64,000 nt of DNA from a candidate division WOR-3 bacterium (GCA_011052815.1 DRIG01000023.1:466-64465); one strand, 5' to 3'. Positions 501 through 59,670 are shown, counted from the first letter of the stretch. The notes: generated by a model from the sequence alone, not told the origin. Program-made: numbers and translations.

Positions 501-528
501 TTGACTTTGCCATATATTTACATAGAAT
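501..528 (+). promoter_or_regulatory. sigma70-type promoter TTGACT-N16-TAGAAT
   Basis: Read directly; AAGGAGG SD at 541-547 precedes the SPFH gene. Confidence 0.65.
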
Positions 529-552
529 ATACTATAAATAAAGGAGGTTAAA

Positions 553-1305
553 ATGCCTTTCAGCGGAATGATAATAGTCATCATTCTCTTAATTATCATC
601 AGCGCAATTAAGATCTTGAGAGAGTATGAGCGGGCAGTTGTCTTCAGACTCGGGAGGTTCTTAAGCGTCAAAGGACCCGGTCTATTCATTCTCTGGCCGG
701 GGATTGATAAAATGATCAAGGTATCACTGAGAGTAATCACAATGGATGTTCCTCCTCAGGACGTAATCACCAAAGACAACATTTCGATAAAGGTGAATGC
801 CGTGGCGTATTTCCGGGTCTTTGAACCGAGTAAAGCAATCCTGGAGGTCGAAGACTACCTCTATGCGACGAGCCAGCTTGCTCAAACCACACTGCGCAGT
901 GTACTCGGCGAATACGAACTCGATGATATCCTTATGAAACGGGAAAAGATAAATCTACGGCTGCAGAAGATCATCGACCTGCAGACCGACCCCTGGGGAA
1001 TAAAGGTTTCCACGGTTGAAATTAAGCACGTGGATATTCCCCAAGAGATGCAGAGGGCGATTGCCCGTCAGGCCGAAGCAGAAAGAGAACGTCGTGCAAA
1101 GGTGATTCATGCTGAAGGAGAACTGCAAGCCGCTGAGAAGTTGAACCAGGCAGCCAAGATAATAAGTGAAACACCTACCGGCATACAATTGCGTTTCCTG
1201 CAGACCCTGACCGAGGTGGCGACGGAGAAAAATTCAACGACGATCTTTCCGGTTCCGATAGACCTCTTTGCACCGTTCATAAAGAAAATCAGCAGTAAAG
1301 AATGA
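553..1305 (+). CDS. SPFH/stomatin (slipin) family membrane protein
   Basis: N-terminal [42 protein letters not shown]. Confidence 0.95.
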
Positions 1306-1784
1306 TTGATGTTTATCAGCAAAAATCCCTGAATTACTTCGAGGTCGTCAAAGATGTCATAAGGAAATACCTGGATTTAAATGTCTTTGACGCCGGTTCT
1401 TTCGAGATTCCAGCAAACGCCTATAATCCATTGCGTCAGCAGTACAACGCAATGCATATTATTAATTATCTCATTACACTGAGCGAAAAAAAGAAAGCTA
1501 TGAAGCTGGGAATTGTCGACGTTGACATCTATTCTCAAGGAATGAATTTCATCTTCGGTCTGGCAGCTCCCCTTCAAAAAACCGCTCTCGTCTCCACCCA
1601 CCGTCTATTCGGTGAAAGACTTCTCGAGAGAATCTCCAAAGAGGTAATCCATGAATTAGGACATCTTCTTGGTCTTCGGCACTGTTCTAATGAAAAATGT
1701 GTTATGCGTTTTTCTATGACGATTCAGGATACCGACGATAAGGATCTTGGTTTTTGTAAAGAATGCAGGAGTAAAATTGAATAA
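1302..1784 (+). CDS. Archaemetzincin family Zn metalloprotease
   Basis: [12 protein letters not shown] zinc motif, C..EKCVM.FS and terminal FCKEC Cys cluster. Confidence 0.9.
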
Positions 1785-2859
1785 ATACACTCTTTTCACC
1801 CCGGGGCCCACTGACATACCGCCTGACGTACTGAAAGTACTCTCAAAACCCATCTTCTATCATCGGGAAGAGAATTTCGCTAAACTTCTAAAAGAGGTAA
1901 CCGACGCCCTCGGAAAAATCCTCTCGAGCAGCGGTAAAATCTATTTCTTTACATCCTCGGGGACCGGAGCCATGGAAGCGGCATGTACCAATATTCTTTC
2001 AAGCAAGGATAAACCAGTCGTCGCGCTCTGTGGAAAATTCGGCCAGCGGTGGCTGGAATTATGTAAAGCGTACAGGATAAAACCGATTGTAATCAAAGAA
2101 GATTACGGTAAAGCGATATCTCCCGATAAAATAGAGAAAGTTCTAAAGAAACGGAAAAGTCCGACGGTGCTGTTTACAACCCTCACTGAAACTTCAACCG
2201 GGGTACTTAATGATATCAAAGCATTCGGTAAAATTACAAAAAAATTCAACGCATATCTGGTCGTCGACGGAGTCGCCGGTATCGGAGCCGACCGCTGTTA
2301 TCAGGACGAATGGAATATCGATATCCTGGTCGGAGCATCCCAGAAGGCATTGATGTCACCTCCTGGAATATCTTTTATTTCAGTCAGTAAACGCGCGCTT
2401 AAAAAAATACAAACCTCAACGCTTCCAAAGTATTATTTCGATCTCAATATATACGAAAAGTTCAGAGAAAAAGCGCAAACACCCTGGACGCCTGCAATCA
2501 ACGTCCTCGTCGGCCTCGCCCGCGGTCTCAAAATTATTCTGAAAAGAGGCATCGAGAAAAATTTTCTATATCACCAGAGACTCGGCGACCATACGCGTCA
2601 ACGTGTTCAAAAGATGGGGCTTGAGATAATGCCAAGCCGTCCTTCAAACGCATTAACCGTCGTAAAGATGCCTGAGGATATCGGTGCCACACGGATTATA
2701 AAGAGAGTAAAAGAAAAATACGGCATACTCTTTGCCGACGGTCAGGCGGAACTTAAAAACAGGATAATCAGAATCGGACATATGGGTAATTACTCGATAA
2801 GAAAAATGGACCGGGCACTTGATGCCTTAGCAGAGGTCTTAAACCAATGGAGAAGGTAG
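1777..2859 (+). CDS. Class V PLP aminotransferase (alanine-glyoxylate/serine-pyruvate type)
   Basis: LFTPGPT, SSGTGAMEA, ETSTG, VDGVA, SQKALM Lys; start moved to TTG 1777 behind an AGGAG SD. Confidence 0.9.
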   Translation: MNKYTLFTPGPTDIPPDVLKVLSKPIFYHREENFAKLLKEVTDALGKILSSSGKIYFFTSSGTGAMEAACTNILSSKDKPVVALCGKFGQRWLELCKAYRIKPIVIKEDYGKAISPDKIEKVLKKRKSPTVLFTTLTETSTGVLNDIKAFGKITKKFNAYLVVDGVAGIGADRCYQDEWNIDILVGASQKALMSPPGISFISVSKRALKKIQTSTLPKYYFDLNIYEKFREKAQTPWTPAINVLVGLARGLKIILKRGIEKNFLYHQRLGDHTRQRVQKMGLEIMPSRPSNALTVVKMPEDIGATRIIKRVKEKYGILFADGQAELKNRIIRIGHMGNYSIRKMDRALDALAEVLNQWRR

Positions 2860-2860
2860 T

Positions 2861-3865
2861 ATGAATAGATACATTAAGTTGGGATTTGAAGGTATTGAGC
2901 TGGAGCTTCCGGTTCACGCCCTGTATCTCTATCGGGAGAGCGACCAGCTCCTTTCCAACATCATCCCTCTGATTACCGAGGGAAATGAAAGAAAGGAAAG
3001 ATGTATCTTCATCGGTAAAGAAAAAGAGTGTAAACTCTTAAAGAAAAGATTCAAAAAACATATTACGACAATCAGTAAAGGCGTGGAAGCTGCGGATTTT
3101 ATTCCCTGGATAAAAAGTGAGTATGACAAACTGCCGAAATCATATCGAGGATTGAGGGTATTTCTCCAGAGTACCCCAGATTTTATTAACTATGAAGATA
3201 TTCTCGATGACTTCAACACTCAACCTGATCTCCGTCTCTTCTTATTGTGCCAGTATCAAATAACCGACATCAGCTCTGATCAACTCCTCAATATTCTCAA
3301 AATACATCCCTATGTCTTCGTCGAGCATCTTTTGAAACCGAACTGTTTCTACTCAAGGGTGAAACATCGCATCTGGCTGGATCCTTTAACCGGTATCTTC
3401 AACAGGCGATATTTCGAAAATCAGCTGAGTAAAGAACTGCAGCGCGCCTCACGCTATGAACACACCCTTTCGATTCTCTTCATCGACATCGATCAGTTCA
3501 AGAAGATAAATGATGAGTTCGGTCATCAGGTCGGAGACAGCGTTCTTTCTCAATTATCCGACATCCTTGAAAGAAGCGTCCGCAGTGTCGACGTGGTGGC
3601 GCGTTACGGAGGCGATGAATTCATCATTTTACTTCCTGAAACCAAGAAAACCTATGCACTCAAAACCGCGGAACGGATATTGAAACACATAAAAAACTAT
3701 GATTTTTTCAAAAATGCGCTTAAGGTGAAAGAGTTGAATATCTCAATCGGGATCGCCGGTTTTCCTGAAGATGCGGGAGGTACGTATGAATTAATCAAGA
3801 AAGCGGATACAGCTCTTTACCAGGCGAAACGCGAGGGCGGTGGAAAAGCACTTTTATGTAAATAG
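2861..3865 (+). CDS. Diguanylate cyclase with N-terminal MEDS-like sensory domain
   Basis: DPLTGIFNRR, RSVD I-site, RYGGDEF; N-terminal HALYLY..., LLCQY, HPYV fits MEDS. Confidence 0.88.
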   Translation: MNRYIKLGFEGIELELPVHALYLYRESDQLLSNIIPLITEGNERKERCIFIGKEKECKLLKKRFKKHITTISKGVEAADFIPWIKSEYDKLPKSYRGLRVFLQSTPDFINYEDILDDFNTQPDLRLFLLCQYQITDISSDQLLNILKIHPYVFVEHLLKPNCFYSRVKHRIWLDPLTGIFNRRYFENQLSKELQRASRYEHTLSILFIDIDQFKKINDEFGHQVGDSVLSQLSDILERSVRSVDVVARYGGDEFIILLPETKKTYALKTAERILKHIKNYDFFKNALKVKELNISIGIAGFPEDAGGTYELIKKADTALYQAKREGGGKALLCK

Positions 3866-3894
3866 GTTCCATTTAATTTTTATAAGGAGGTAAA

Positions 3895-4344
3895 ATGCCG
3901 ATAACACCGTTAGAAATACGGAAACAGGAATTTAGAAAATCACTGCGCGGCTATGATCCTCATGAAGTCCGTTCTTTTCTGGAAATGGTCTCCACGGAAA
4001 TAGAAAATCTGTTGAGAGAAAACGCGGGTTTGAATGAAAAGGTGAAGGATATGGATGCAAAGATCGAAGACTACCGACGGATGGAGAAGATACTCCAGGA
4101 CACCCTCACCACCACACAGAAAGCCGCTGACGAAGTGAAGAACGGCGCCCGTAAAGAAGCCGAAACCATAATCGCAAATGCACGGGTTGAAGCCCAGCGA
4201 TTTTTGAAAGAAGCCCAATCCGAACTCGCCCGGGTAAAAGAAGAGACAAAGATGATCGAGCATCAAAAACTGTTGCTGGTTTCAGAATTCCGCGGACTTC
4301 TGGAATCCTACCTGAGACTCCTTGAAAGGCTGGAAAATAAATGA
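3895..4344 (+). CDS. DivIVA domain protein
   Basis: ITPLEIRKQEFRKSLRGYDPHEVRSFL followed by coiled coil. Confidence 0.92.
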   Translation: MPITPLEIRKQEFRKSLRGYDPHEVRSFLEMVSTEIENLLRENAGLNEKVKDMDAKIEDYRRMEKILQDTLTTTQKAADEVKNGARKEAETIIANARVEAQRFLKEAQSELARVKEETKMIEHQKLLLVSEFRGLLESYLRLLERLENK

Positions 4345-4355
4345 GGAAAGAATAA

Positions 4356-5168
4356 GTGAGGGAAAAAGCTACAGAAGCAGCACGGTTTTTAAGGCGGAAG
4401 ATAAAAGCCAGGCCGCGCATCGGAATCATTCTCGGTACTGGTCTCCATCAACTGGCAAAGGCGATCACTGTGAAGGCTTCAATTCCTTATGAAAAAATTC
4501 CCAACTTTCCCACTTCAACCGTGGAATTTCACAAAGGAAGACTGCTTATCGGCAGGCTGAGGGGCAAACAGATCATCGCCATGCAGGGACGTTTTCATTA
4601 CTATGAAGGATATAGTGCAAAAGAAATAACCCTTCCCATCATTGTAATGAAAATGCTCGGCATAAGATACCTGATAATCTCCAATGCCAGCGGCGGCCTG
4701 AATCCACAATTTTCACCGGGTGATATAATGGTGATCACCGACCATATAAATCTCCTGCCTGATAATCCTCTACGCGGTCCCAATGATCCCCGCCTGGGTC
4801 CGAGATTTCCTGATCTGTACAACTGTTATAATGACCGCCTGATTAAATCGGCGGAAGAGGTTGCTTTAAAGAAAAGGATAAAGATACAGAAAGGTGTCTA
4901 TGTCGCTGTGCCGGGTCCCAATCTCGAAACAGGAGCGGAGTACCGCTTTTTAAGGATAATCGGAGCCGATGCCGTAGGTATGTCCACTGTTCCCGAGGTT
5001 ATAATGGCACGTTATCTGAATATAAAGGTGCTGGGTCTGTCAATCATAACCGATATGGGGATCGCCGACGCACTGGAACCCGCCAGCCTGGAAAAAATTC
5101 TGAAAACCGCGGCTAAAGCTGAACCTTTTTTAACGAAACTCGTTTCCGGAATAATCGAAAAATTATGA
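4356..5168 (+). CDS. punA: Purine nucleoside phosphorylase (trimeric type)
   Basis: GIILGTGL, MQGRFHYYEG, GPNLET.AE, VGMSTVPE. Confidence 0.93.
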   Translation: MREKATEAARFLRRKIKARPRIGIILGTGLHQLAKAITVKASIPYEKIPNFPTSTVEFHKGRLLIGRLRGKQIIAMQGRFHYYEGYSAKEITLPIIVMKMLGIRYLIISNASGGLNPQFSPGDIMVITDHINLLPDNPLRGPNDPRLGPRFPDLYNCYNDRLIKSAEEVALKKRIKIQKGVYVAVPGPNLETGAEYRFLRIIGADAVGMSTVPEVIMARYLNIKVLGLSIITDMGIADALEPASLEKILKTAAKAEPFLTKLVSGIIEKL

Positions 5169-6058
5169 AAATAAAATTTCATCTATTAATATGGTCCTCT
5201 TTTTTTATCCTCTTTTTTATCAATTGCTCGAATAAAACAGAACATATCAAAAAAGCGCGTGAGTTTATTAAGAAATGGGACTATGATCGGGCTTTGACGG
5301 AAATCATTTCATACAGAAGAGAACAGGATGCAGAAGTGCAGTATCTTCTGGGTTACTGCTATCTGAAAAAAAACGTCTTTGAGGAAGCGGCTAATTATTT
5401 CAAAAATTCATTGGCGATAGATGATCTTTTTAAAGACAGTATCATAAACATCTATGATAAACTCGCAAAGAATGCACTCAGGATAAATGAACCGGAGCGG
5501 GCGCTCATCTTTTATCAGGAAGCGGCGAAACTGGTGCCTGAATACGAACAGGCGAGTAACCTCTTTTTGATCGCCGGTTTGAACTTCAAAAAAGGCAATT
5601 ATCCCGCCGCTTTAAAGGCGTTCATGCGCGCATTTGAAATCGACTCGACCTCAGAGCAGGCGAAGAAAGCAAAATACAACTACATAAAAACACTTAAGGA
5701 ATGTGACAGTCTGGAACAGGCGCTGCACCTTGCCGAAGAAGAATACGAAAAATTAAAGACCGCCGCCAATATGCTGCAGTTGAATGAGATCCGGTTTGAA
5801 CTCGGCAGGAAATTGTTTACAGAAGGAGCCCTGGACAGTGCGTCGCTCTTCTTTGAACAGATTCTCGCGATGCAGGAGCCGAAATCCCTGCTGGACATTT
5901 CATATTTTTATATGGGAGAAATCCACCTCAAAAAAGGAGATCAGTCAGCGGCTCTCAAGATGTACAAGAAGGTGCTGCGGCTGAATCCTTATGAAAAAGG
6001 AGAAATTGTCAAAAAAGCAAAGGAACGCATAAAAGAATTGAAGGAGAAGAACCGATGA
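5165..6058 (+). CDS. TPR-repeat lipoprotein
   Basis: Hydrophobic N-terminus with lipobox-like FINC; multiple TPR helices. Confidence 0.8.
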   Translation: MKIKFHLLIWSSFFILFFINCSNKTEHIKKAREFIKKWDYDRALTEIISYRREQDAEVQYLLGYCYLKKNVFEEAANYFKNSLAIDDLFKDSIINIYDKLAKNALRINEPERALIFYQEAAKLVPEYEQASNLFLIAGLNFKKGNYPAALKAFMRAFEIDSTSEQAKKAKYNYIKTLKECDSLEQALHLAEEEYEKLKTAANMLQLNEIRFELGRKLFTEGALDSASLFFEQILAMQEPKSLLDISYFYMGEIHLKKGDQSAALKMYKKVLRLNPYEKGEIVKKAKERIKELKEKNR

Positions 6059-6819
6059 AACTCAACGCCTTTCTTTTCATGGTTTTCTTCCTCATCGCTC
6101 TTCTATCGTGTGGAAGCAGACAGGCCGTCACAGTACCGCTGGAGCCCGATATTCAGTTTGAAACCGCTATGGAATATTTTAAAGCGGGAAAGTACGACAA
6201 AGCCATACCACTCTTTGAAAAGATACTTTTTTATCATCCCTCATCCGAATATGTAGACGATGCGCAGTACTGGCTGGGAAAAGCGTATTTTGAGAAGAAA
6301 GACTACAACCAGGCGATTATTGAATTTGATTATCTCATTAAGAATTTCACGACGTCGAAATTCATCGAAGATGCATATTTTTATCGGGCGAAATCATATC
6401 TCAACAAAGCGCCGGGTTATGAAAAAGACCCCACGGAGACAGAGAATGCAATAACCCTTTTCGACCAGTTTCTGACAAAATTTCCAGGTTCCAAATATAT
6501 TGATGAAGTGAAGAAATCAATATTATCAGCACGCAACCGCCTGGCAAAAAAAGAACTGGAAAACGGAAAGCTCTATATAAAACTGGGGGAAAAAGATGCG
6601 GCCCTCCTCTACTTCAACTATGTTATGGAAAATTATCCCGAGACGGACGCGAGCAATGAAGCAAAATATCTGGCGGCGACGCTTTATGAGAAAAAAGGTA
6701 TGACTGAGGAAGCGCTGAACCTCTATAAAGCCCTTATGGAAGAAGAAGAGTGGAAGGAAAGAGTAAAAGAGAGAATCGAACGGATAAATCAGAAAGATCA
6801 ACAATCAGTAAATGAATAG
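6055..6819 (+). CDS. bamD: Outer membrane assembly factor BamD
   Basis: Lipobox LLSC, TPRs, RNRLAKKELENGKLY, AALLYFNYVMENYPET. Confidence 0.85.
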   Translation: MKLNAFLFMVFFLIALLSCGSRQAVTVPLEPDIQFETAMEYFKAGKYDKAIPLFEKILFYHPSSEYVDDAQYWLGKAYFEKKDYNQAIIEFDYLIKNFTTSKFIEDAYFYRAKSYLNKAPGYEKDPTETENAITLFDQFLTKFPGSKYIDEVKKSILSARNRLAKKELENGKLYIKLGEKDAALLYFNYVMENYPETDASNEAKYLAATLYEKKGMTEEALNLYKALMEEEEWKERVKERIERINQKDQQSVNE

Positions 6820-7402
6820 AAGAAAAAAAATCGGTGTATTCGGCGGCCTCTTCGACCCGCCGCATATCGGTCACCTCATTATCGCTCAATCGATTCTGGA
6901 AGAATTCCATTTTGAAAAAATAATCTTCATCCCGGCGGGAAACCCTCCTCATAAAAGAAGATACTCACCATATAAAATTCGATTCCATATGACGAAACTG
7001 GCGATAGAAGATAATAAAAAATTCTTAATAAGCAACATTGAAGAAAAAATAACGGGAAAGACCTATACCGTTGAAGTGATTAAAGAACTGAAAAGAAGAA
7101 TCAACGGTGCACTATACCTCATCATCGGAAGTGATCAGTGGGCTGAAATCAAAACCTGGAAAAATCCGGATGAATTATTCAAACACTGCAGAGTCATCGT
7201 TGCACCGCGCGCCCCGTATAAAATAAAAAAGGTAAGGCGCCTCTCCAATAAGCTCCTGATCGCCCATACACCTTTGATTAATATCTCTTCAAGCGATATA
7301 AGAAAAAGACTCAAAAGGAATCGAAGTATTCAATACCTCGTGCCGTCGAAGGTTCATCAATACATCAAAAAAAAGAGATTGTACCAAAGCGTTGATTCAT
7401 AA
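6812..7402 (+). CDS. nadD: Nicotinate-nucleotide adenylyltransferase
   Basis: GGLFDPPHIGH, GSDQ, ISSSDIR. Confidence 0.95.
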   Translation: MNRRKKIGVFGGLFDPPHIGHLIIAQSILEEFHFEKIIFIPAGNPPHKRRYSPYKIRFHMTKLAIEDNKKFLISNIEEKITGKTYTVEVIKELKRRINGALYLIIGSDQWAEIKTWKNPDELFKHCRVIVAPRAPYKIKKVRRLSNKLLIAHTPLINISSSDIRKRLKRNRSIQYLVPSKVHQYIKKKRLYQSVDS

Positions 7403-7421
7403 AAGCCACTCAAGATGATAC

Positions 7422-7449
7422 TTGTCACCGATTTGAGATTACGTATAAT
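7422..7449 (+). promoter_or_regulatory. Promoter TTGTCA-N16-TATAAT, leaderless to polA
   Basis: ATG 7 nt after the -10 box, no SD. Confidence 0.6.
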
Positions 7450-7456
7450 ATAGCTT

Positions 7457-9913: not shown

Positions 9914-9941
9914 TTGACATTTTGAAAATTTTATCTATAAT
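9914..9941 (+). promoter_or_regulatory. Promoter TTGACA-N16-TATAAT, leaderless to rplM
   Basis: Perfect consensus; ATG 8 nt downstream, no SD. Confidence 0.75.
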
Positions 9942-13398: not shown

Positions 13399-13472
13399 CC
13401 CTGTTTGAAGTTGGAATATCTGTTAATAAACTATTTATTTAAATATTTGTCTAAAGTGTGAAAGGAGGAGAA

Positions 13473-16749: not shown

Positions 16750-17806
16750 GGGTTTAAATTTTTATATTACACATATCGCTTTGATCTTCGATTCGATCTT
16801 CTCATAACGTTTTTTCAACTCTATGTCTTCAACCATCTTCTCCTTCAAGCGCCGGCGTAATTGATGCACCGAAACATAATCAATCCTTCCCAACAAACTT
16901 CCTATCTGAACCTGAGTGAGTCCACAGTACCTGTACAACAGGTCGGCTGCCATCCCCCGAAGCTCACCATGAGCGCCGCGCTGCTCGAATAACTCTCTAC
17001 TGATGCCGTATTCCCGCTGGAAGATCTTGAAAAGTGCGGTCGGTTCCAGAGTCGCTGCTGTCGTATTCCGGGAAAACGACTGTTCCCGCCGCGCGCCCCA
17101 GCTTAAATACTGTTTGGCATAAACCACGAACTTATCGTCACCCAGGATGAATCGACTCTTCACCTTCTCAAAAGGATTTCCTTTATCGTATTTCAAACCG
17201 TCGATCATGAAATTACGATAGCCCCGCCGGCCGCCGGCCTTCGACAGAATAAAATCATAATTTATAAAAGAAAGTGCATATCGCTTTCTGAGATAACCAC
17301 CTAAACTGCTCCAGCGGTAATGTCTTGCATATCGCCACTGTCCACGATAATCCGCTGATCTTTTTCTCAATCGTACGATACTCAAATGAAGATATCGGGA
17401 AACTTCAAGTAAATAGGTATCGGCGTCAACCAGAAACGCCTGGTACCGTCCCTGATATAAACTGCCGCACCGGCCATAGCGGCGATTAAACCAGCTGGTG
17501 TAACGAATATTAAAGTGACGCATGAATTCAGAACAATTCGCTCTTCTGGTCTGAATCAGTAGATGAAAATGATCGGACAACATAATGTAGGCGAAGGGTA
17601 TGATCTGATAGATTTCTGATGATTCCAGGAGTAATTCGAGAAATCTGGAACGGTCTCTGTCATCAAGGAATATCCTCCGCCGTTCCATTCCCCGGCAGGT
17701 GATATAATACACCGCACCCGGGAATTGAATTCTTAAAGATCTCGCCATAAACTCAATATAACCATTTTACGGTTGATGTCAATGTACAATGTAAAGATTT
17801 GACCCC
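16750..17806. mobile_element. Y1/RAYT element bounded by imperfect 25-bp inverted repeats
   Basis: 16750..16774 GGGTTTAAATTTTTATATTACACAT vs reverse complement of 17782..17806 GGGGTCAAATCTTTACATTGTACAT, 19/25; no TSD seen. Confidence 0.6.
16762..17748 (-). CDS. REP-associated/IS200-like HUH tyrosine transposase (Y1_Tnp) with DnaA-C-like HTH tail
   Basis: RSLRIQFPGAVYYITCRG, HFH HUH motif, GSLYQGRY, RYLHL, RWSS; C-terminal GLTQVQIG..LGRIDYVSV. Confidence 0.88.
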   Translation of the reverse strand: MARSLRIQFPGAVYYITCRGMERRRIFLDDRDRSRFLELLLESSEIYQIIPFAYIMLSDHFHLLIQTRRANCSEFMRHFNIRYTSWFNRRYGRCGSLYQGRYQAFLVDADTYLLEVSRYLHLSIVRLRKRSADYRGQWRYARHYRWSSLGGYLRKRYALSFINYDFILSKAGGRRGYRNFMIDGLKYDKGNPFEKVKSRFILGDDKFVVYAKQYLSWGARREQSFSRNTTAATLEPTALFKIFQREYGISRELFEQRGAHGELRGMAADLLYRYCGLTQVQIGSLLGRIDYVSVHQLRRRLKEKMVEDIELKKRYEKIESKIKAICVI

Positions 17807-17886
17807 AGCTTTCGGCCTTGACAAGTTTCAGAATACGTATATAATATCTTATATGAAAACAACGGTTAATAGCAACAAGGAGGTCT

Positions 17887-24360: not shown

Positions 24361-24412
24361 TCGCTATTATAGTCAAAATGTCTTTAATGTCAACCATAAA
24401 TAAGTAATAAAT

Positions 24413-26226: not shown

Positions 26227-26321
26227 TCTTCCTCCTTTCAGATTGTTCTGCTTCCTAAATTAGATTATAGTAAAAATATTTATGGTGTCAAGAAGTTCTG
26301 ATGTAAAAATGAATATATCTT

Positions 26322-31003: not shown

Positions 31004-31140
31004 TCAAGCTCCTTTGTTTAGTTTTGTCTATATATAGATTCTACCTTTATATCACTGAAAGTCAACCCCTGAGAAAATACAAAACTGAGTATTGGAATAT
31101 TTCTTCGATTTCTTTGTATAATTAAGTAAAGGAGGTAAGA

Positions 31141-32160: not shown

Positions 32161-32253
32161 CCGGTGGATCGTTTAATATTCCTTTCGCAGCTTGACAAAT
32201 CATTGAAATTTATTATAGTGATATAGAATAAGCAGATGTGGAGGTAAGAAACC

Positions 32254-32736: not shown

Positions 32737-32829
32737 GCGACGTGTGCGACGTGGAAATATATAAATTTACTTTATCTCTTGCAACGTTGTATTGACAAAA
32801 GAATATTTTTCTGTATAATAAGAATCGAT

Positions 32830-40345: not shown

Positions 40346-40392
40346 AACTAATATTGTATTAAAATTAAAGAAAAAGTCAACTATAATTTTGG

Positions 40393-44277: not shown

Positions 44278-44373
44278 GCTGAAAAATTATATCTATAAAA
44301 TCAGGAGAGTCAACCGCCATAATGAAATCAAATCTTTCTTGATTTTAGAAAAAAGTTCGGTATAATATAGACT

Positions 44374-46237: not shown

Positions 46238-46302
46238 ATTCCCATTATAAAAAAAAATACCACCGGTGTCAATACCAGAATCCTGGAGTATCCTACAATT
46301 TT

Positions 46303-47799: not shown

Positions 47800-47884
47800 G
47801 ACATATCCCATTATATCCAGTATATAAAAGTTGTCAAGAGATCAGTTTCTGTTGACTTTTCGGGATATTTTTTTATAATATGGT

Positions 47885-50300: not shown

Positions 50301-50400
50301 ATTTTCAGCTTTTACTACAGAAAAGTATAGTATATTACATTCTTTCATCTTGACAAAACAAAAATTGTGTATATAATTTCTCAATGGAAAAGGAGGTAAA

Positions 50401-51629: not shown

Positions 51630-51636
51630 AATATGG

Positions 51637-51886
51637 GGGATTCTCCCCCCTATTCTCCACTCTGTTTTTGTAAACAACCACAAAAACATTCGTGGAGACC
51701 TCACACCCCCCTACCACCTGCAGTCTCTGATCTTTTTATCTTATCTGAGACCGCCGTGGTCGATACCTTGAGCAGACGCCGTTTCATTACGCTAACAGAT
51801 TCATAAAGGAGGGATTCTCCCCCCTATTCTCCACTCTGTTTTTGTAAACAACCACAAAAACATTCGTGGAGACCTCATACCCCCCT
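51637..51886. repeat. 76-bp direct repeat (2 copies, period 174)
   Basis: 51637-51712 and 51811-51886 differ at one position; each folds into a CTCCAC/GTGGAG + TGTTTTTGT/ACAAAAACA hairpin. Confidence 0.9.
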
Positions 51887-51947
51887 TTTTTGATTTTGTT
51901 TTATTATATTAGTTTTTTTATTATTGTCAATAAACTTACCAGGTTGA

Positions 51948-53660
51948 TCACTGCTCATAGCGATAAGGTAGATATTCCGGATTCCATATTGCGTGGCTTA
52001 TCAATTCCCGGAGTTTATCATCCGCCAAATGAATTCCTAAACCGGCATCACGTGCTTCCTTAGCAACTGCAAATGCCACTTCTTCAGAAACTTTTCGGAT
52101 ATCACTTATCTCAGGCAGAAGATTTCCTTTTGCTGCAGCTGAATGAGGAATAAGATCCTGCAGTGCCTTAGCCGCCGCATAGAACATCGCATCAGTAACT
52201 TTTGATGTCATAGAAACAATCGCTCCAAGCCCGACCCCCGGGAAAATATACATATTATTACACTGCGTGATTTTCCTGGTTTCGCCATTAACCACTACAG
52301 CGTCAAAAGGACTGCCGGTTGCAATTAAACAAGAACCATTGGTGGCGGTAAAGGCTTGCTCAGGTGTACACTCACATTTTTTATTCGGATTAGACAGGGC
52401 GAAAATCACCGGTTGAGCTGTATTCTCAGCCATCTGAGCAAGTACCTCGGCGGTAAAACTGTTCGGCATACCGGATGTCCCGATTAACACGGTCGCCTTG
52501 CTGTTCAGAACCGTGTCATATAAATCAATCTTATCAGGATTACGGAGTTTCCAGGAGCCGGTATCTGCACGCGAGCGGGCAAAAGGCGCCTGATATTCGT
52601 GAGGATTGGTGTCATCAAAAACAAGCCCATTGTGACCCAATGGATAGATGCGTTCTTTTGCTTCTTTTTCTGTCAGCCCTTCATCAATCATTGCATGGGT
52701 TAAAATGTTCGCGATACCATAACCGGCTTGACCGAATCCGAAGAAAACATAAATTTGGTCTTTCAACTTCTCTCCTTTGCCGTAAATAGCTGAGAGCAGA
52801 GCAGCAAGCGTCACTGCACCGGTACCCTGAATATCATCATTAAAAGAACATATGCGTTCACGATAGCGATTAAGAATGCGCAGTGCATGCTGTTTTCCAA
52901 AATCTTCCCATTGCACAAGGGCATGAGGAAAAACTCTTTTCACACTCTGCACAAAATGTTCAATCACTGAATAATATTCATCTCCAGTGAGCCGTTCATG
53001 TCTGAGGCCGAGATAAAGAGGATCATTAAGTAAATCCTTATTGTTTGTTCCCACATCAAGCAGTATCGGCAGACACAAAGCCGGATGTAACCCTGCTCCG
53101 ACTACATACAAACTCGTCTTGCCGACCGGTATTGCCATACCACCGACTCCCTGATCACCCAGGCCTAAAATCCGCTCACCGTCAGTGACGACGATTAAAT
53201 TAACATTGGAAAAAGGCGCATTGGCGAGAATCGAATCAATCATTGTGATTTGATCAGCCGCAATATACAAACCGCGTGGTCGGCGGAACATATGACTGAA
53301 GGTCTTCGCCGCCTCACCAACCGTCGGTGTATATACTATCGGTAACATTTCTTCAGCATTATCCAGGACAAGTCGATAAAAAAGTGTCTCATTACGATCC
53401 AGCAACCCAAGCAGAAAAATGAATTTTTCGATCGGACTCGTCTTCTTTGAATAATTTTCATATACCCTTTTCACCTGTTCATCCATTGTCGAACTGTGAC
53501 GCGGTAAAACCCCATGTAAATCAAGTTGTTCACGCTCCTGCTCAGTAAATGCTGAACCTTTATTATAAATTGGATGTTCCACCAGCAGCCTTCCTTTAAA
53601 AGGAACCCTGATGTATTTCTCACCATTCATCGGGTCAACCTGTATTGCAAAGTCTCTCAT
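51948..53660 (-). CDS. maeA: NAD-dependent malic enzyme
   Basis: YTPTVG, VTDGERILGLGD, QWEDF, FNDDIQGT, LSNP, QCNN. Confidence 0.95.
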   Translation of the reverse strand: MRDFAIQVDPMNGEKYIRVPFKGRLLVEHPIYNKGSAFTEQEREQLDLHGVLPRHSSTMDEQVKRVYENYSKKTSPIEKFIFLLGLLDRNETLFYRLVLDNAEEMLPIVYTPTVGEAAKTFSHMFRRPRGLYIAADQITMIDSILANAPFSNVNLIVVTDGERILGLGDQGVGGMAIPVGKTSLYVVGAGLHPALCLPILLDVGTNNKDLLNDPLYLGLRHERLTGDEYYSVIEHFVQSVKRVFPHALVQWEDFGKQHALRILNRYRERICSFNDDIQGTGAVTLAALLSAIYGKGEKLKDQIYVFFGFGQAGYGIANILTHAMIDEGLTEKEAKERIYPLGHNGLVFDDTNPHEYQAPFARSRADTGSWKLRNPDKIDLYDTVLNSKATVLIGTSGMPNSFTAEVLAQMAENTAQPVIFALSNPNKKCECTPEQAFTATNGSCLIATGSPFDAVVVNGETRKITQCNNMYIFPGVGLGAIVSMTSKVTDAMFYAAAKALQDLIPHSAAAKGNLLPEISDIRKVSEEVAFAVAKEARDAGLGIHLADDKLRELISHAIWNPEYLPYRYEQ

Positions 53661-53878
53661 ATTACCTCCAATTTCAGAATTCCAAAATATAAGATATGCT
53701 TCATGGCTATGTTTTTCAGAACCCTACATCTTCTTCAGTATATACCATTCAAACAAAAAGTCAAATGTTTTAAATGTAAATCTAAAAAACTACACCTTTT
53801 ATAATTCTTTCAAGATAATTTTGTATTCAAGAAAAAAACATTAATTCAATAATTTGAAGATTAGAGATTTGCCCCTAA

Positions 53879-56581
53879 CTAGTTCTTTCTCCTGAAAAGA
53901 CTGATGATGCCGGGAATGAAAAGAACGGTCATCACAAAGCATGCTGCAACCCCCACGGTCAGTAAAGTGCCCAAACTGCGATATGCTGGATAACTGCTAA
54001 ATGAAAGCGCCCCGAACCCGGCCATTGTAGTCAGAGATGTCAGAAGAATTGCCTTGCCCGTACTGCGCAGCACATCCGATGTTTTATCAAAACCTTCGTA
54101 TTTATAGCGATGAATGACATGCACACCATCATCAATACCAATCCCGACGATCATTGGTATTCCCATCACATTGATAAAGTCAAGAAGCATACCAAATGAT
54201 TTCATAATGCCCATCATCACAATACCTCCGCTGATAAGCGGTAGCATCCCCAGCAGGGCAAGACGCAGACTGCGAAAATCAATCCACAAGAGGAGCAAGA
54301 CAACGATAAGCGTCAAAATTGTTGCCCATAATCCATCTTTCCCAATCAGATTAATAAGATGTAAAAACATTGGAGGTGTGCCGGTTACCCGGGGGCTGAC
54401 CAGTTGCAGTTGTTTGGTAAACCGATCAAGCACAGCAAAATCCCACATCTGTTTGCGTGCATAGATTGTTACAAGAAAGTTATCACCACGTTCATTAACA
54501 TACCGATCTTTTATGTGCTGAGGCAGAACATCAAGGGTAATGAGTTCAGGATTTGCCATATCAAATAATTTCTTTTTTAAAACCGGATAATAATACTTCT
54601 GAAATTTATTGAGCTGACGCACTGCCAGTACTGGCTTATCCTGAATTGCTTCAATCAGTTCCATAATAAGACCCTGAACATCTTCCTGTTCTGGGTCTCC
54701 GATAATGAGTTTACATTTCTCATCAATCTTATCCTGACCTCCGATATATGCCAGCTGAGCAAGCTCGTAGATATTCAGATCAAGCCGCTTTAGCTGGGCA
54801 ATTAATTTTTTAAGTGAATTTACTTCTAAAAGGGCTATTTTCTTATTCTTTCCAATTTTTTCTCTTAGGGCTTTAACATAGGGCTGGCGCAACCTCTGCA
54901 CTGATTCAGGCGGACAGACATCACCGATTCCCTCAACAATACTTAATGCCGGCAAGGCCTTTGCTTTTTGTTCCAGTTTCCAGGATTCTTCAATTGAAGA
55001 AGCAGTAACCATGGCAAAATCAGGGCTCATTTCAAATGCCTTTATAATTGTATCCTGAAGATGGATTACTGGAATATCCGGCTCTAAACTCATCATATTA
55101 TAATTGAATTTTAGATTGAATGCTTGATATAACAGAATACCAGTAATAACCACCCCGCCTATTATGTAAAGCGCTCTATGCTTTACAACATTTTGACCGA
55201 CATTACCAAGAAAATGAAATTCAGAAACCTTTGGTTTTACCATCTCCTTTTTAACGCGGAAGATCCAGCGTTCCCGCACAACCAGGATCGCAGGCAGTGC
55301 GGCAAGCGAAGTAATCATTGCACTACAGATCCCAATACCGAGCACAATCCCCATCTCTTTAATACCACGGGTCGACGAGATTGCCAGGGCAAAAAATGCC
55401 GCCGCCGTAGTCAGGGCACCAGTAATTATACCGGAACCCGAACGGGCAAAAGTTTCTTCCATTGCCTGTCTCTGATCAGAATCGATATTACGGCGCTCAT
55501 TATAAACTGAAATCAGGTGAATCGCATAATCAATACCAAGGCCAATAAGTATCACAGCGAATATCGAAGTCATCATATTAAGCCGACCAATTGTAATAGC
55601 CACAATGCCCGCAGTAATAATTATTGCGATAACAAGATTTAAACCGGCAAGGATCGGTGCACTCCACATCCGAAAGCTAATAATAAAGAGGATTATCACA
55701 AGCAGTAGGGCGATTATTGAACTTAAGAACATCGCCTTTTCCGTATATTCCATTTCATATTTCTGAATTGGAATAATACCAGTGACACCGGCATGAATCC
55801 CGAGATATTTTTTTTGTGTCCTTTCGATAATCTCTTCAATGGCACTGGTTGCCGCAATGTCTTTTTCAATATCGATCGAAGAAAAGGTTGGTTTACAGGA
55901 AAGAAGTAGAGTTTTCTTATTGTAGGAAATAAAATAAAGATCGCCATATAGAAAACGCTCAACCATTGAGTCAATCAGAACATGATTTGCACCTACCGGG
56001 GTATTTATAAATGTATCCATTGTTTTAAGCCAGTGGTATAAGCCATCGAGTGCGCGGGCTGCTTCGTCTTCTTTTGTCCGCGTATCCAGTGCCTGATCAT
56101 TGCCAACATATTCTTTTTCAAAATTATTATTAATGTTATCAAGCAAAGGTACTAAATTCAAATCATTGAACATATCAGTTGTATTTCTGAGATCTTCAAT
56201 GTCAGTAAGCATAAAACCGTGCCGACCAAAAAATTCCTTATCGAGTTTATAGTCAACCCGTTCAATATACGCCTCTAATTCTTCGATTTCTGGAGCAATT
56301 TCATCAGCAAATTTTTTGATTGCCGCCTCTTCACCTTGAATAACAATAAGTATTGTTGAGGTGCTCTTAAATTCTTTTATGATACGCTCGAACTCCTGAG
56401 CCATAGGATCGCCTGAAGGCAGCATATCTGACCAGCGCATATCCATTCGCAGAGCAGAAGCAAAGATCACTGAAAGGATAATAAGAACAAAAATAACAGC
56501 CAATACCCACCAGGGATGTGTTGCCACAAAACGTGCCCACTGCCGTAATAATCTTTCTTTCATATATTTCTTTCTCCTCAA
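53879..56581 (-). CDS. MMPL/RND-family transporter
   Basis: Two TM halves, GLGIDYAIH and GIGIDDGVH motifs, large periplasmic loops. Confidence 0.92.
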   Translation of the reverse strand: MRRKKYMKERLLRQWARFVATHPWWVLAVIFVLIILSVIFASALRMDMRWSDMLPSGDPMAQEFERIIKEFKSTSTILIVIQGEEAAIKKFADEIAPEIEELEAYIERVDYKLDKEFFGRHGFMLTDIEDLRNTTDMFNDLNLVPLLDNINNNFEKEYVGNDQALDTRTKEDEAARALDGLYHWLKTMDTFINTPVGANHVLIDSMVERFLYGDLYFISYNKKTLLLSCKPTFSSIDIEKDIAATSAIEEIIERTQKKYLGIHAGVTGIIPIQKYEMEYTEKAMFLSSIIALLLVIILFIISFRMWSAPILAGLNLVIAIIITAGIVAITIGRLNMMTSIFAVILIGLGIDYAIHLISVYNERRNIDSDQRQAMEETFARSGSGIITGALTTAAAFFALAISSTRGIKEMGIVLGIGICSAMITSLAALPAILVVRERWIFRVKKEMVKPKVSEFHFLGNVGQNVVKHRALYIIGGVVITGILLYQAFNLKFNYNMMSLEPDIPVIHLQDTIIKAFEMSPDFAMVTASSIEESWKLEQKAKALPALSIVEGIGDVCPPESVQRLRQPYVKALREKIGKNKKIALLEVNSLKKLIAQLKRLDLNIYELAQLAYIGGQDKIDEKCKLIIGDPEQEDVQGLIMELIEAIQDKPVLAVRQLNKFQKYYYPVLKKKLFDMANPELITLDVLPQHIKDRYVNERGDNFLVTIYARKQMWDFAVLDRFTKQLQLVSPRVTGTPPMFLHLINLIGKDGLWATILTLIVVLLLLWIDFRSLRLALLGMLPLISGGIVMMGIMKSFGMLLDFINVMGIPMIVGIGIDDGVHVIHRYKYEGFDKTSDVLRSTGKAILLTSLTTMAGFGALSFSSYPAYRSLGTLLTVGVAACFVMTVLFIPGIISLFRRKN

Positions 56582-56589
56582 TTTATAGT

Positions 56590-57783
56590 TTAGAAGTAAA
56601 CCGTAGCACGCAGCAGACCGCTGTTTCCAAAATTATGATTGAATGCCTTGCCTTCAGCACCAATAAATATATTGAACATCAAAGCGAGATCGATGTTTTC
56701 AAAGAGACTGCTGTTTATCATCGGCACCAATACCACACTCTGATCACTAATACTGAAAATGAACATACTGCCTACAGTGGTTAAATCAGTAATGGGGTAT
56801 TGCGTAAGACCATATAACTGGTCGCGTGAGATTGTTTTGACCTCCCCTGTGATATAACGCATCCAATCATTGAGGTCATAATTATGGTAATCATCTTTTG
56901 CAATCGAGTTGTGATGATACTCGAACATTATATAAAAACCATTCTTAAAGGTGTAATCACCACCTGCCAGACACTCATAAGAATTCTCTCCTTCATCAGC
57001 CATAACATTATAAACACCTTCACCCCACACTCCACAGCCGAGCAGTTCTCCCACAAAATCAGCACCGAGCATGGTTCGTTCTTCCGTAGCAGACTGGAAT
57101 GTATAAAAATCGGTCGTTGTATGCCAGAATCGATATGCAATAGCTGAAATATCAAAATGTCCCAGTCCGAGTTTTACCCGACCGAGTTTACCTGATTGCT
57201 GCCAATCAGCATTGATCGGCGTGTAAAGTGCAGTAATACTGATACGTGGCACCGGGTATATCTCTATTCTGAGCGCATTGTGGCCGGACTGTTCATAGGT
57301 TGGATCGAGCGCATCTTTGATGTTTAATTGATCAGTGGGATTGGCAAAATAACCAGTGCCAAACGAAATCTGCTGTTTACCAATCATAAAAGCAAACTTA
57401 GGAACATTCAGGCGGACATAGGCATTGTCCAGATATATTGTGTCATTGAAATAACTCTCATAATAGGGCTGCATCTCAGGCGGAATTGAATCGGCGATCT
57501 CATCCGGCAAAAAATCTAAAATATTCCAGTGGCGTAGACCAAAGTAATGAAGATAGATGAGGTCTGCTCCAAAACGCACATTTTTGTTTTCGGTATTTTT
57601 TAAATCGATACGTAGTTTTCCATAGCCGGTCTGGTTGTAATCACGGTTCAGTAAATATCCGGCATATTGTGGTTCAAAATAACCGTAAATCTCAACCTGG
57701 CCATATAGCCCGGCTAAAGGCAGGATCAGAACCAAAATGATTATCAATTCAATAATCCAGTTCTTATTACATAGATTCTTCAT
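56590..57783 (-). CDS. Outer membrane beta-barrel protein (porin-like)
   Basis: Signal peptide, GKQQISFG, C-terminal ...ATVYF. Confidence 0.7.
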   Translation of the reverse strand: MKNLCNKNWIIELIIILVLILPLAGLYGQVEIYGYFEPQYAGYLLNRDYNQTGYGKLRIDLKNTENKNVRFGADLIYLHYFGLRHWNILDFLPDEIADSIPPEMQPYYESYFNDTIYLDNAYVRLNVPKFAFMIGKQQISFGTGYFANPTDQLNIKDALDPTYEQSGHNALRIEIYPVPRISITALYTPINADWQQSGKLGRVKLGLGHFDISAIAYRFWHTTTDFYTFQSATEERTMLGADFVGELLGCGVWGEGVYNVMADEGENSYECLAGGDYTFKNGFYIMFEYHHNSIAKDDYHNYDLNDWMRYITGEVKTISRDQLYGLTQYPITDLTTVGSMFIFSISDQSVVLVPMINSSLFENIDLALMFNIFIGAEGKAFNHNFGNSGLLRATVYF

Positions 57784-58556
57784 TGTTTCATTCCTTCCTC
57801 AGTGAATAACGCGTCTGGTAAATCAACATTATAATTAATCTCTATGATTTCCATAGTCGTCTTGGTATCGTCGAGTTTGTTGTACATCGTAAATTTCATC
57901 GGCGTATAGATGCCGTCGATAAGTTCTATGTCCGTGCAGATGAGTTGCTTTTCACGCAGCTCGGGATCATCATCATGGAAATAGTCAATGACAATCGGCA
58001 CAAACGTTTTTTTGTCGACCCAGACAATAATCCGCGAGTAACCGGCGTCACTCTCTGGTTTACGGCTCAATTCCAGTTTATAACATTGACGCCCTTCCTT
58101 TTTCTCGTCCTCCAGACGTACGGATTCGTATTCTTCGACAAAGGTATTGGAACCGCCCATATCCTCATACGAAAAGTCACTGCCTTCAAGTTTTTGCCGG
58201 CGTGCATGACTGGCAAGTTTACGCACATGATTTCTTTTGGGAAAATAGATCCAGATGTCGTCACCGTCATTGAGCATCAGGATAGTCTGTCCCTTGACAC
58301 GGGAAGGCTCAAGGTATTTCATAAGGCTCTTTTTACCTCGACCTTTTGAATAGGTGTGATAGAAAAACGAACGCTCCTCACCTGACGTGGTTGTGATCGT
58401 CATCTTCATCTTTGCTTCTGATTGTTCCGGATTCATCGCCTGCGTCATAGTGTTAATAATCTCACCTGCAGTAATATTGTCCTCTGCCCAAACCAGGTGG
58501 CTGTATATTGCACCTGCCAAAAAAAGTAAGATAAAACCAAGTAAATATTTAAACAT
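57780..58556 (-). CDS. Outer membrane lipoprotein-sorting (LolA-like) protein
   Basis: P..VKGQTIL, IWIYFP...VRK, GSDFSYEDM, LPDALF; start ATG 58556 with SD. Confidence 0.85.
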   Translation of the reverse strand: MFKYLLGFILLFLAGAIYSHLVWAEDNITAGEIINTMTQAMNPEQSEAKMKMTITTTSGEERSFFYHTYSKGRGKKSLMKYLEPSRVKGQTILMLNDGDDIWIYFPKRNHVRKLASHARRQKLEGSDFSYEDMGGSNTFVEEYESVRLEDEKKEGRQCYKLELSRKPESDAGYSRIIVWVDKKTFVPIVIDYFHDDDPELREKQLICTDIELIDGIYTPMKFTMYNKLDDTKTTMEIIEINYNVDLPDALFTEEGMKQ

Positions 58557-58567
58557 ATTTCCTCCTT

Positions 58568-59317
58568 TTACCATAATCGATATCTTCTTTTTGTCTGTTT
58601 ATCATCTGGTTCAGTCCGGGGCTGTAATTTTTCAAAGAAGAACTGCATTATTTCTTCAAACTCGCCCGGCACATATATTTTTATTGAACCCCTGGCTGCA
58701 CCAAGAATGCGTTCAATTAAGTCCTGATACATCTTTATCTTGATACTCGTCTGTGCACATATCTTCTTAATATCAGTCGCACCATTGAGCAAACTTTTGC
58801 AGACAACTTCATTTATATGTCTTCCTAAATTTATTATAATCTCGCCCATATATTCAGGGTACGAGGTATTGAACACACCTTCTTTTATACCCTGCTTAAC
58901 AATCTTTTCAATTATCCCTGAATTTTTTTCAATCGAACGTTCAAACATCCGCGCACGCAGCAAGTAATTCTCTTCCTGGTAAAGGGTCTTTAAGAATATA
59001 AGAAAGAGGTCAATATTTTTTACCTTGTAGCCGGTTCCAGCGCGAAATATTTCATTTATCTTTTCTATTGCACTTTTCTTTGAATCCGCAATCAGCTGCA
59101 ATTGCCGCGACATTTCAGTAACCATCTCCTCAACCAGAGAATCGAGCAATTGCATCTTGGAACTGAAATAATGATAAAAAGTACCCTTTGCAATATCAAG
59201 GGCATCGATTATATCCTGAACAGTGGTGGTCTCATAGCCTTTCTGGAAGAACAATCGTCGGGCAGTATCAATAATCTCCTGCCGGCGAACCCGGTAATCT
59301 TGTCCCTGCTTAACCAT
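58568..59317 (-). CDS. TetR/AcrR transcriptional regulator
   Basis: IIDTARRLFFQKGYETTTVQDI....KGTFYHYF. Confidence 0.95.
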   Translation of the reverse strand: MVKQGQDYRVRRQEIIDTARRLFFQKGYETTTVQDIIDALDIAKGTFYHYFSSKMQLLDSLVEEMVTEMSRQLQLIADSKKSAIEKINEIFRAGTGYKVKNIDLFLIFLKTLYQEENYLLRARMFERSIEKNSGIIEKIVKQGIKEGVFNTSYPEYMGEIIINLGRHINEVVCKSLLNGATDIKKICAQTSIKIKMYQDLIERILGAARGSIKIYVPGEFEEIMQFFFEKLQPRTEPDDKQTKRRYRLW

Positions 59318-59328
59318 AATTCCTCCTT

Positions 59329-59386
59329 TAGACCGACCGTCGGTTTAGGGAATAATATTATAGACCGACCGTCAGTCTATAATATT
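59329..59386. promoter_or_regulatory. Two palindromic TetR-type operators
   Basis: TAGACCGAC-C-GTCGGTTTA (59329-59347) and the 33-bp AATATTATAGACCGAC-C-GTCAGTCTATAATATT (59354-59386), overlapping the -10 of TTGACA-N16-TAGAAT. Confidence 0.85.
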
Positions 59387-59670
59387 CTATCAATTTTTTT
59401 TGATTTGTCAAGCCCTTTTTATCGAAAAACTTCTGACTGCGGGTGTGAAACATTATCTGTAATTCTACCTATGTAATTCTACGTATAATATTCCATTTTT
59501 AAATAATGGGCTGTCGAGTATATTTTAAAGTTCAACAAGCGACTTAAGAACGGAGTCAATAAAGATGAAAGAGAAGCAGAAGCCAAAAGAAAACAGTGTC
59601 CTTCAAAAATCAATTAATTACAGAAAAACGGACAAACAACCATTGTTCGTTGAAAAGGAGGTGAGCCACG

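Follow-up and report, generated by a model that had tools for sequence, protein, structure and literature searches.

A 16-bp modal spacer in predicted sigma-70-type promoters of the candidate phylum WOR-3

The locus and its predicted promoters

The stretch of DNA that we analysed, referred to here as the window, is 64 kb long, has a GC content of 43.7% and is about 92% coding. Its genes include polA, an rplM-rpsI-rpsB operon, secDF, pdxJ, pdxA, ribBA, grpE-dnaK-dnaJ, and those for malic enzyme, aspartate kinase and BatA. It further encodes an H-NOX/hybrid kinase pair, a transporter operon of the MMPL/RND type under a TetR regulator, and proteins that end in sorting tails for type IX secretion (T9SS). 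The closest loci to the window's DnaK (83-85% identity) come from metagenome-assembled genomes (MAGs) of Candidatus Stahlbacteria or candidate division WOR-3, and the window shares synteny, at a DNA identity of about 70%, with the loci L002-L007. Judged by this identity and synteny, the source is an uncultivated, 'Stahlbacteria'-like member of the phylum WOR-3, a phylum that includes thermophiles and of which a cultured isolate exists (PMC12285271). Our subject is the set of predicted promoters in this window, whose boxes resemble TTGACA and TATAAT and are almost always separated by 16 bp (written N16) and not by 17 bp.

The original prediction had listed, by eye, 20 sites of the N16 type and a single N17 case. 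All of them, 20/20 TTGACA/TATAAT-like N16 pairs and the N17 site, are present in the sequence. For sites on the plus strand its coordinate is the first base of the -35 box, and for sites on the minus strand it is the low end of that box, whose first base lies at p+5 (17777 becomes 17782). The sites are as follows (SD, Shine-Dalgarno; ORF, open reading frame; 12/12, match to all consensus positions; leaderless starts are predicted throughout).

501..528, plus: TTGACT-N16-TAGAAT, upstream of a band-7/HflK-like gene (553-1305) with an SD leader
7422..7449, plus: TTGTCA-N16-TATAAT, polA (7457-9904), leaderless, 7 nt from -10 box to ATG
9914..9941, plus: TTGACA-N16-TATAAT, 12/12, rplM-rpsI-rpsB from 9950 (Pfam labels L13/S9/S2), leaderless, ATG after 8 nt
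13405..13432, plus: TTGAAG-N16-TAAACT, 8/12, 9.0 bits, ORF 13458-13790, a weak candidate and the least convincing listed site
17755..17782, minus: TTGACA-N16-TATATT, REP-associated tyrosine-transposase-like gene (16762-17748), leaderless, 6 nt, divergent with 17818
17818..17845, plus: TTGACA-N16-TATAAT, 12/12, T9SS-tail protein (17887-18987), SD leader, 41 nt
24366..24393, minus: TTGACA-N16-TATAAT, 12/12, pdxJ (23644-24360), leaderless, ATG after 5 nt
26264..26291, minus: TTGACA-N16-TATAAT, 12/12, T9SS-tail/BNR protein (24460-26226), SD leader, 37 nt
31038..31065, minus: TTGACT-N16-TAGAAT, PDZ protein and adenylate-cyclase/AAA/TPR protein (26322-31003)
32192..32219, plus: TTGACA-N16-TATAGT, ORF 32254-32736
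32792..32819, plus: TTGACA-N16-TATAAT, 12/12, tRNA-Met (32829-32902), mature 5' end 9 nt past the -10 box
40353..40380, minus: TTGACT-N16-TACAAT, ribBA (39074-40345), leaderless, ATG after 7 nt
44286..44313, minus: TTGACT-N16-TATAAT, GalE-like epimerase (43360-44277), leaderless, ATG after 8 nt
44339..44366, plus: TTGATT-N16-TATAAT, 10/12, aspartate kinase (44374-45588), leaderless, 7 nt, divergent with 44313
46244..46272, minus: TTGACA-N17-TATAAT, 12/12, the only N17 site, ORF 45566-46237, leaderless, ATG after 6 nt
47810..47837, minus: TTGACA-N16-TATAAT, 12/12, towards a sugar transferase (46303-47613)
47852..47879, plus: TTGACT-N16-TATAAT, towards a small ORF and pdxA (48185-49114), divergent with 47837
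50350..50377, plus: TTGACA-N16-TATAAT, 12/12, ORF 50401-50901, SD leader
51903..51930, minus: TTGACA-N16-TATAAT, 12/12, followed by two 76-nt structured repeats and then tRNA-Arg (51555-51630)
53737..53764, minus: TTGACT-N16-TATACT, malic enzyme (51948-53660)
59384..59411, minus: TTGACA-N16-TAGAAT, TetR regulator and MMPL/RND-type transporter operon (53879-59317)

All listed sites are intergenic and aimed at a downstream gene or tRNA, and the units served include housekeeping ones (the rplM operon, tRNA-Met, polA, pdxJ and ribBA). Three pairs are arranged back to back (17755-17845, 44286-44366 and 47810-47879), with the divergent -35 boxes 14-35 bp apart. That the sites are copies of a repeat or mobile element is ruled out, since their spacer sequences are all different.

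Spacer length in the window

The exact arrangement TTGACA-N16-TATAAT is found at eight sites (9914+, 17818+, 32792+, 50350+, 24393-, 26291-, 47837- and 51930-), the expectation for any one spacer length being about 0.019 (Poisson p ~3e-19). Most of the remaining listed sites match the consensus at 10-11 of 12 positions, the site at 13405 being the exception. With at most one mismatch per box, counted on both strands over the whole window, N16 occurs 24 times, compared to 4.66±2.17 in 200 dinucleotide shuffles (maximum 11), whereas the three occurrences of N17 against 4.5 expected reveal no enrichment. The same preference emerges when spacers of 13 to 21 are weighted equally in a scan with an E. 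coli-derived matrix that takes the best match upstream of each ORF or tRNA: 16 of the 19 matches with at least 10.5 bits are N16, and N15, N17 and N19 are represented by one match each. The N15 match is an alternative reading of the site at 501, the N17 match is the site at 46272, and the remaining match, at 31092, is without a real -35 box.

The matrices used to define promoter sets were E. coli-like; the exception is a scan of upstream regions for 4-mer dyads, which is free of any prior. Its top dyad was TGAC-N17-TATA, with 10 observed and 0.34 expected, which is the same arrangement as TTGACA-N16-TATAAT. A separate promoter scanner, applied to positions 1-20000, returned five top-ranked matches that are all N16. 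The unbiased two-block search, which had been proposed together with the by-eye list as a check on it, thus gives N16 as the mode over the window and N17 at chance level. One could assume that picking sites by eye made the uniformity look real; the original prediction itself carried this caveat, and site 13405, which it listed, is weak. However, N16 was recovered by comparison with shuffles, by the equal-prior matrix, by de novo dyads and by the separate scanner, and the same pipeline gives N17 for Chloroflexi. Chance or ascertainment, whose probability we consider negligible, is effectively excluded as an explanation of N16.

Occurrence in other WOR-3 loci and in Chloroflexi

Ten WOR-3 relatives with detectable promoters were passed through the same pipeline and yielded 22 N16 sites versus 1 N17 site, whereas Chloroflexi loci peak at N17. 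A further 64 JGI metagenome contigs were fetched by means of a degenerate DNA pattern that encodes the peptide VPAHIIDAINK of RpoD. Counting by lineage used the loose pattern TTGACn-Nx-TAnnnT and was restricted to upstream regions, with the following result.

Window: N16 14, N17 1
L002-L007: N16 18, N17 1
Loci with RpoD type A: N16 14, N17 2
Loci with RpoD type D: N16 4, N17 0
Loci with RpoD type C: N16 3, N17 2
Loci with RpoD type B: N16 3, N17 0
Chloroflexi controls: N16 1, N17 27

The WOR-3 total of 57 N16 and 7 N17 differs from the 1 and 27 of Chloroflexi with a Fisher p of ~1e-15. The N16 rule is seen in WOR-3 clades of differing habitat whose GC content ranges from 32% to 55%. Promoters that are orthologous to those of pdxJ (L002/L003) and of the galE-like gene (L002/L003/L005) have kept both boxes and the N16 spacing, and their spacer sequences have diverged. 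A raw excess of N17 in L008 was considered as a counter-example and dropped, the matches being weak and inside genes. The original prediction had suggested that the RNA polymerase (RNAP) or sigma factor of this lineage has an altered spacer geometry. Its claim that the spacing is a property of the lineage is supported by the recurrence of N16 across WOR-3 and of N17 in Chloroflexi; an altered RNAP or sigma factor may be the cause.

Several TTGACA-N16-TA(A/G)nTT sites are also located upstream of genes in L059, L079 and L026, which are unlabelled AT-rich MAG contigs with no phylum assigned, and the 16-bp habit may extend past the loci labelled as WOR-3. In the Chloroflexi loci (e.g., L029, L035, L040, L049, L052, and L072), most of the signal in the upstream dyad scan comes from the CIRCE heat-shock operator, TTAGCACTC-N9-GAGTGCTAA, near dnaK. 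No CIRCE element was found in the WOR-3 window, even at 3 mismatches.

Promoter anatomy

An alignment of 37 WOR-3 N16 promoters has sTTGAC(a/t) as the -35 box, where s is C or G, and TATAAT as the -10 box. The T, T and G of the -35 box are present in 37/37 promoters each, followed by A in 36/37, C in 34/37, and then A or T. In the -10 box, position 2 is A and position 6 is T in 37/37 each, which is partly imposed by the scoring; TATA, ATAA and TAAT were recovered by the dyad scan without any prior. C or A is preferred about 5-6 nt past the -10 box. The spacer has T at -16 in 31/37 promoters and at -18 in 28/37, with A or T at -19 and -20. A TG begins at -16 in 11/37 of them and at the canonical -15 in 5/37; among 51 N17 promoters from other phyla, 29 have T at -15, 24 have G at -14, and 17 have TG from -15. 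Measured from the -10 box, these counts place the -35 box of WOR-3 closer by one base than in the canonical promoter, and the T(G) feature further away by one base. The promoter at 31092-31122, which belongs to a gene for an ARPP-1-domain protein (31141-32160), has a perfect TATAAT together with T-18 and T-16 and is without a -35 box at N16, which suggests that the spacer signature may be anchored to the -10 box.

The main rival to an altered holoenzyme is DNA topology. If the chromosomes of these bacteria were less negatively supercoiled or more tightly wound, then a 16-bp spacer would align the two boxes rotationally as a 17-bp spacer does in E. coli, and the RNAP would be an ordinary one. 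T/A-rich tracts are overwound, and the spacers of WOR-3 are rich in T/A between -21 and -16. The thermodynamic model of Forquet et al. predicts a preference for short spacers where the DNA is relaxed and for long spacers where negative supercoiling is high (PMC9303308), and there are thermophiles within WOR-3 (PMC12285271). However, the N16 rule spans WOR-3 clades that differ in habitat and GC content, and a change in twist leaves the one-base displacement of the T(G) feature relative to the -10 box unexplained. The hyperthermophile Thermotoga maritima has reverse gyrase. Its promoters are centred on 17 bp (PMC3636130), and spacers of 16 nt are the one class in E. coli that does not follow the torsional model (PMC9303308). 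We assign DNA topology a low probability.

An alternative explanation is that the optimum is still 17 bp, and that near-perfect hexamers select for a suboptimal spacer against over-stable complexes and slow escape, as in the rRNA P1 promoters of E. coli. The promoters in the window are unusually near consensus, and in synthetic libraries 16-bp spacers can equal 17-bp spacers in strength (PMC8695583). E. coli has a distinct subclass with 16-nt spacers that includes stable-RNA promoters (PMC9303308); promoters of this rrnB P1 type share the 16-bp spacer and the good hexamers with those of WOR-3. However, the E. coli subclass is a minority with G/C-rich discriminators and unusual sensitivity to supercoiling and ppGpp (PMC9303308), whereas the WOR-3 promoters serve all gene classes and have A/T-rich discriminators: over the 5 nt past the -10 box, the 20 window sites are 27% GC in a window of 44% GC, and thus lack the G/C-rich discriminator by which the subclass is recognized. 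In addition, N17 is without enrichment even at imperfect boxes, where tuning would be needless, and the promoters of T. maritima are likewise of very high information yet have 17 bp (PMC3636130). Such kinetic tuning is unlikely, and in our view distinctly so.

Predicted leaderless genes

Eight genes of the window, which correspond to about half of the promoters, are without an SD sequence and begin 5-8 nt past the -10 box.

Leaderless starts: 7457 (polA), 9950 (rplM), 17748 minus (RAYT-like), 24360 minus (pdxJ), 40345 minus (ribBA), 44277 minus (galE-like), 44374 (aspartate kinase), 46237 minus (one unnamed ORF)

For pdxJ, ribBA, the GalE-like protein and aspartate kinase the NCBIfam family alignments start at residue 1-2. 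This, together with the position of the ATG, predicts leaderless mRNAs and a -10 box in its normal register. Elsewhere in the window there are genes with strong GGAGG leaders, and the same mixed pattern is seen in L002-L007. In bacteria that are rich in leaderless genes (Actinobacteria and Deinococcus-Thermus) the -10 box likewise precedes the start codon by 5-8 nt, which would place the start of transcription on the ATG or right beside it; the window differs from them in that leaderless genes coexist with strong GGAGG leaders and the full -35 box is kept. Leaderlessness is a side feature that does not explain the spacing, although its high share bears on the calling of gene starts in WOR-3 genomes.

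Sigma factors

A canonical rpoD gene is located downstream of dnaK in L008-L011, L032 and L036, and of these loci L032, L036 and L010 obey the N16 rule. WOR-3 RpoD is 550-620 aa long, and its N-terminal domain aligns with the N-terminus of SigA. Residues were checked in these loci and in the 64 metagenome contigs, all of which represent clades other than the window's own. Aligned from region 2 to region 4.2 with SigA of B. subtilis and two other solved SigA proteins, WOR-3 RpoD has no indels in its linkers; the sole gap is one extra residue in region 3.1 of the type found in L032/L036, and a by-eye comparison with region 3.2 of E. coli revealed no indel. The lineage-specific indels that had been proposed for inspection in RpoD regions 3.0 and 4 were thus not encountered, apart from the single residue in region 3.1, and the differences in region 3.0 are substitutions. 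Region 2.4 (WWIKQAITRAI, which reads -12 with the equivalents of Q437/T440) and region 4.2 (TRERIRQIEAKA / TRER(I/V)RQIEAKA, which reads the -35 box with the equivalents of R584/E585/Q589) are conserved in WOR-3 RpoD, and this accounts for the canonical TTGACA and TATAAT boxes.

The only lineage-specific change that we found in RpoD lies in region 3.0, the helix adjoining the spacer, where WOR-3 has ADQSRTVRVPAHIIDAINK (VPAHIIDAINK) and model bacteria have ADQARTIRIPVHM(I/V)ETINK (PVHM(I/V)ETINK). In E. coli numbering the changes are V454A, M456I, E458D and T459A. All 64 of the JGI contigs fetched with the VPAHIIDAINK pattern (64/64, L082-L145) encode an RpoD of the WOR-3 type, and on this sequence evidence the peptide is a usable signature of the phylum. 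In E. coli, E458 reads the TG of the extended -10 element, and R451 senses -18, where a T is stimulatory (PMC3130263); the equivalent of R451 is conserved in WOR-3 RpoD. The substitutions in region 3.0 would fit the altered spacer signature, and we infer only that they might also cause the preference for 16 bp. Neither rpoB nor rpoC was found among ORFs of at least 900 aa in the fetched WOR-3 loci, and tblastn found no gyrA in them.

The only sigma gene in the window (15363-16196, 277 aa, sigma-70 family) is located directly after htrA/degP (13865-15358). The encoded protein scores below every curated cutoff (RpoD, RpoS, and RpoH), its region 3.0 is short by 3 residues, and region 2.4 has R/Y at the positions that read -12. 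These three properties rule it out as the primary sigma, and it is probably an alternative, stress sigma factor. It keeps the residues that read TTGACA in region 4.2 (TRERVRQI), and one might therefore assume that this protein, or another group-2/3 sigma factor with a natural 16-bp spacing, reads the boxes described here. However, apart from the properties just mentioned, the position of its gene behind htrA is that of a stress sigma, the N16 promoters serve ribosomal-protein, tRNA, polA and vitamin-biosynthesis genes, and WOR-3 genomes whose RpoD is canonical and full-length follow the N16 rule as well. That an alternative sigma factor recognizes these boxes has a very small probability and is effectively excluded.

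A proposed shift in holoenzyme geometry

The sites probably represent genuine housekeeping promoters, recognized by a group-1 sigma factor of the RpoD/SigA type, in a phylum that prefers 16 over 17 bp and whose holoenzyme geometry is predicted to be shifted. In the WOR-3 holoenzyme, sigma domain 4 on the beta flap might be located about 1 bp nearer to sigma domain 2; alternatively, the spacer DNA might be routed differently across the beta' zipper and sigma region 3.0. The shift would then be due neither to chance nor to a special promoter subclass or DNA supercoiling. As the probable cause we favour an altered geometry of RNAP or sigma that is encoded in the proteins, because the rule is uniform over gene classes, promoter strengths, and clades of differing GC content and habitat, and because the spacer contact is displaced and region 3.0 is phylum-specific. 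A more far-reaching version, to which we give somewhat less than even chances, is that the whole phylum (WOR-3 / Caldipriscota-Stahliibacteriota) has shifted its core housekeeping geometry by 1 bp, with a strict 16-bp optimum and a relocated T-16/-18 contact, encoded in sigma region 3.0 and/or the beta flap and beta' zipper. If this were the case, then it would be the first natural primary-sigma holoenzyme with canonical -35/-10 specificity but an optimum other than 17 bp.

Several observations weigh against this interpretation. All WOR-3 promoters considered here are predictions from sequence; we found no mapped transcription start sites in the literature for WOR-3. Orthologous promoters are among those counted for L002, L003 and L005, and these counts are not independent. 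The high-GC clades of WOR-3 (RpoD types B and C) yield few consensus promoters, so that the N16 rule is weakly supported there. RpoD is without an indel that would be an obvious means of bringing domain 2 and domain 4 closer together; the substitutions in region 3.0 (V to A, E to D) are of a conservative kind, and to connect them with the spacing is speculative. The evidence from the protein side is limited to RpoD, and it comes from WOR-3 clades other than that of the window.

Comparison with known systems

The predicted WOR-3 promoters share with canonical sigma-70/SigA promoters (E. coli, B. subtilis, and most studied phyla) the hexamers, the invariant A-11/T-7 and the conserved sigma regions 2.4 and 4.2; from the leaderless starts, the -10 box is predicted to lie at the canonical distance from the transcription start as well. 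They differ in that the canonical spacer is 17 bp with TG at -15/-14, whereas in WOR-3 the mode is 16, there is almost no 17 or 18, and T is found at -16/-18. The distribution is thus not centred on 17±1, and the departure is from the modal value and not from the class, as 16 bp is within the tolerance of canonical RNAP. A survey published in 2025, covering 49 species whose start sites have been mapped, reports 17 bp as the predominant spacer in all of them, and WOR-3 was not included (PMC12641261). T. maritima resembles the window's source in its near-consensus promoters, its small genome and deep branching, and in having tRNA promoters among its best (Latif et al. 2013, PMC3636130). However, its spacers are centred on 17 bp, extended -10 TGn elements dominate, and leaderless transcripts were not found (PMC3636130), whereas in the window the spacer is 16 bp, canonical TGn is missing and about half of the transcripts are predicted to be leaderless.

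The Bacteroidota, which like WOR-3 belong to the FCB group, have a core geometry that is also off the E. coli standard (sigma-ABfr, -33 TTTG / -7 TAnnTTTG). The WOR-3 promoters differ from theirs in having a full TTGACA box and a TATAAT box without a following TTTG; moreover, the Bacteroidota sigma is short, without region 1.1 and diverged in regions 2.4 and 4.2, whereas WOR-3 RpoD is a long, canonical group-1 protein. The gap between TTG and TA in Bacteroidota is reportedly about 19-21 bp, and a gap of 19 would equal TTGACA-N16-TA. In two loci labelled as Bacteroidota we found no TAnnTTTG sites with which TTG-N19-TAnnTTTG could be compared, and a plasmid of B. thetaiotaomicron gave no clear -33 peak; in F. 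johnsoniae the -33 element is weak (PMC6847099). By analogy, a link between the WOR-3 spacing and the promoter geometry of Bacteroidota is possible.

We found no report of a lineage with a 16-bp optimum, nor of promoter work in WOR-3. What appears to be new is a predicted combination, promoters of the canonical sigma-70 type in which both the modal spacer and the spacer signature are shifted. The 17-bp spacer is treated as near-universal and is a fixed prior in promoter predictors and in biophysical models applied across phyla; a phylum with 16 bp would be mis-scored by tools with this prior. It would also be an experiment of nature on how the spacing of sigma domain 2 and domain 4 is determined, with few candidate residues in region 3.0 that could be swapped into E. 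coli. The WOR-3 isolate (PMC12285271) makes the prediction directly testable, and the arrangement provides a simple sequence signature for spotting transcription units in WOR-3 metagenome bins.

Other features of the window

Positions 59671-62372 encode an H-NOX (haem-NO-binding) protein and, after it, a hybrid histidine kinase that has two receiver domains, likely an NO- or O2-sensing pair; we did not see a recognisable N16 promoter upstream of it. Between the promoter at 51930 (minus) and tRNA-Arg, two 76-nt copies (51637-51712 and 51811-51886, minus sense) are 99% identical and 174 nt apart, and each folds as a long hairpin (-26.7 kcal/mol, z = -4.1). The repeat has no match in Rfam, and no further copies are present in the window or in any fetched locus. 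The gene at 16762-17748, which has one of the leaderless promoters, matches RAYT (REP-associated tyrosine transposase) at its N-terminus with an NCBIfam E of 5e-13, below the cutoff. For tRNA-Met (32792-32902) the predicted primary transcript has a 5' leader of merely ~2-3 nt. Directly past the -10 box of the promoter of the TetR gene (58568-59317), the palindrome ATTATAGAC-N9-GTCTATAAT (9-N9-9) occupies 59357-59383; it looks like a TetR operator, in the layout that is usual for an autoregulated TetR promoter.

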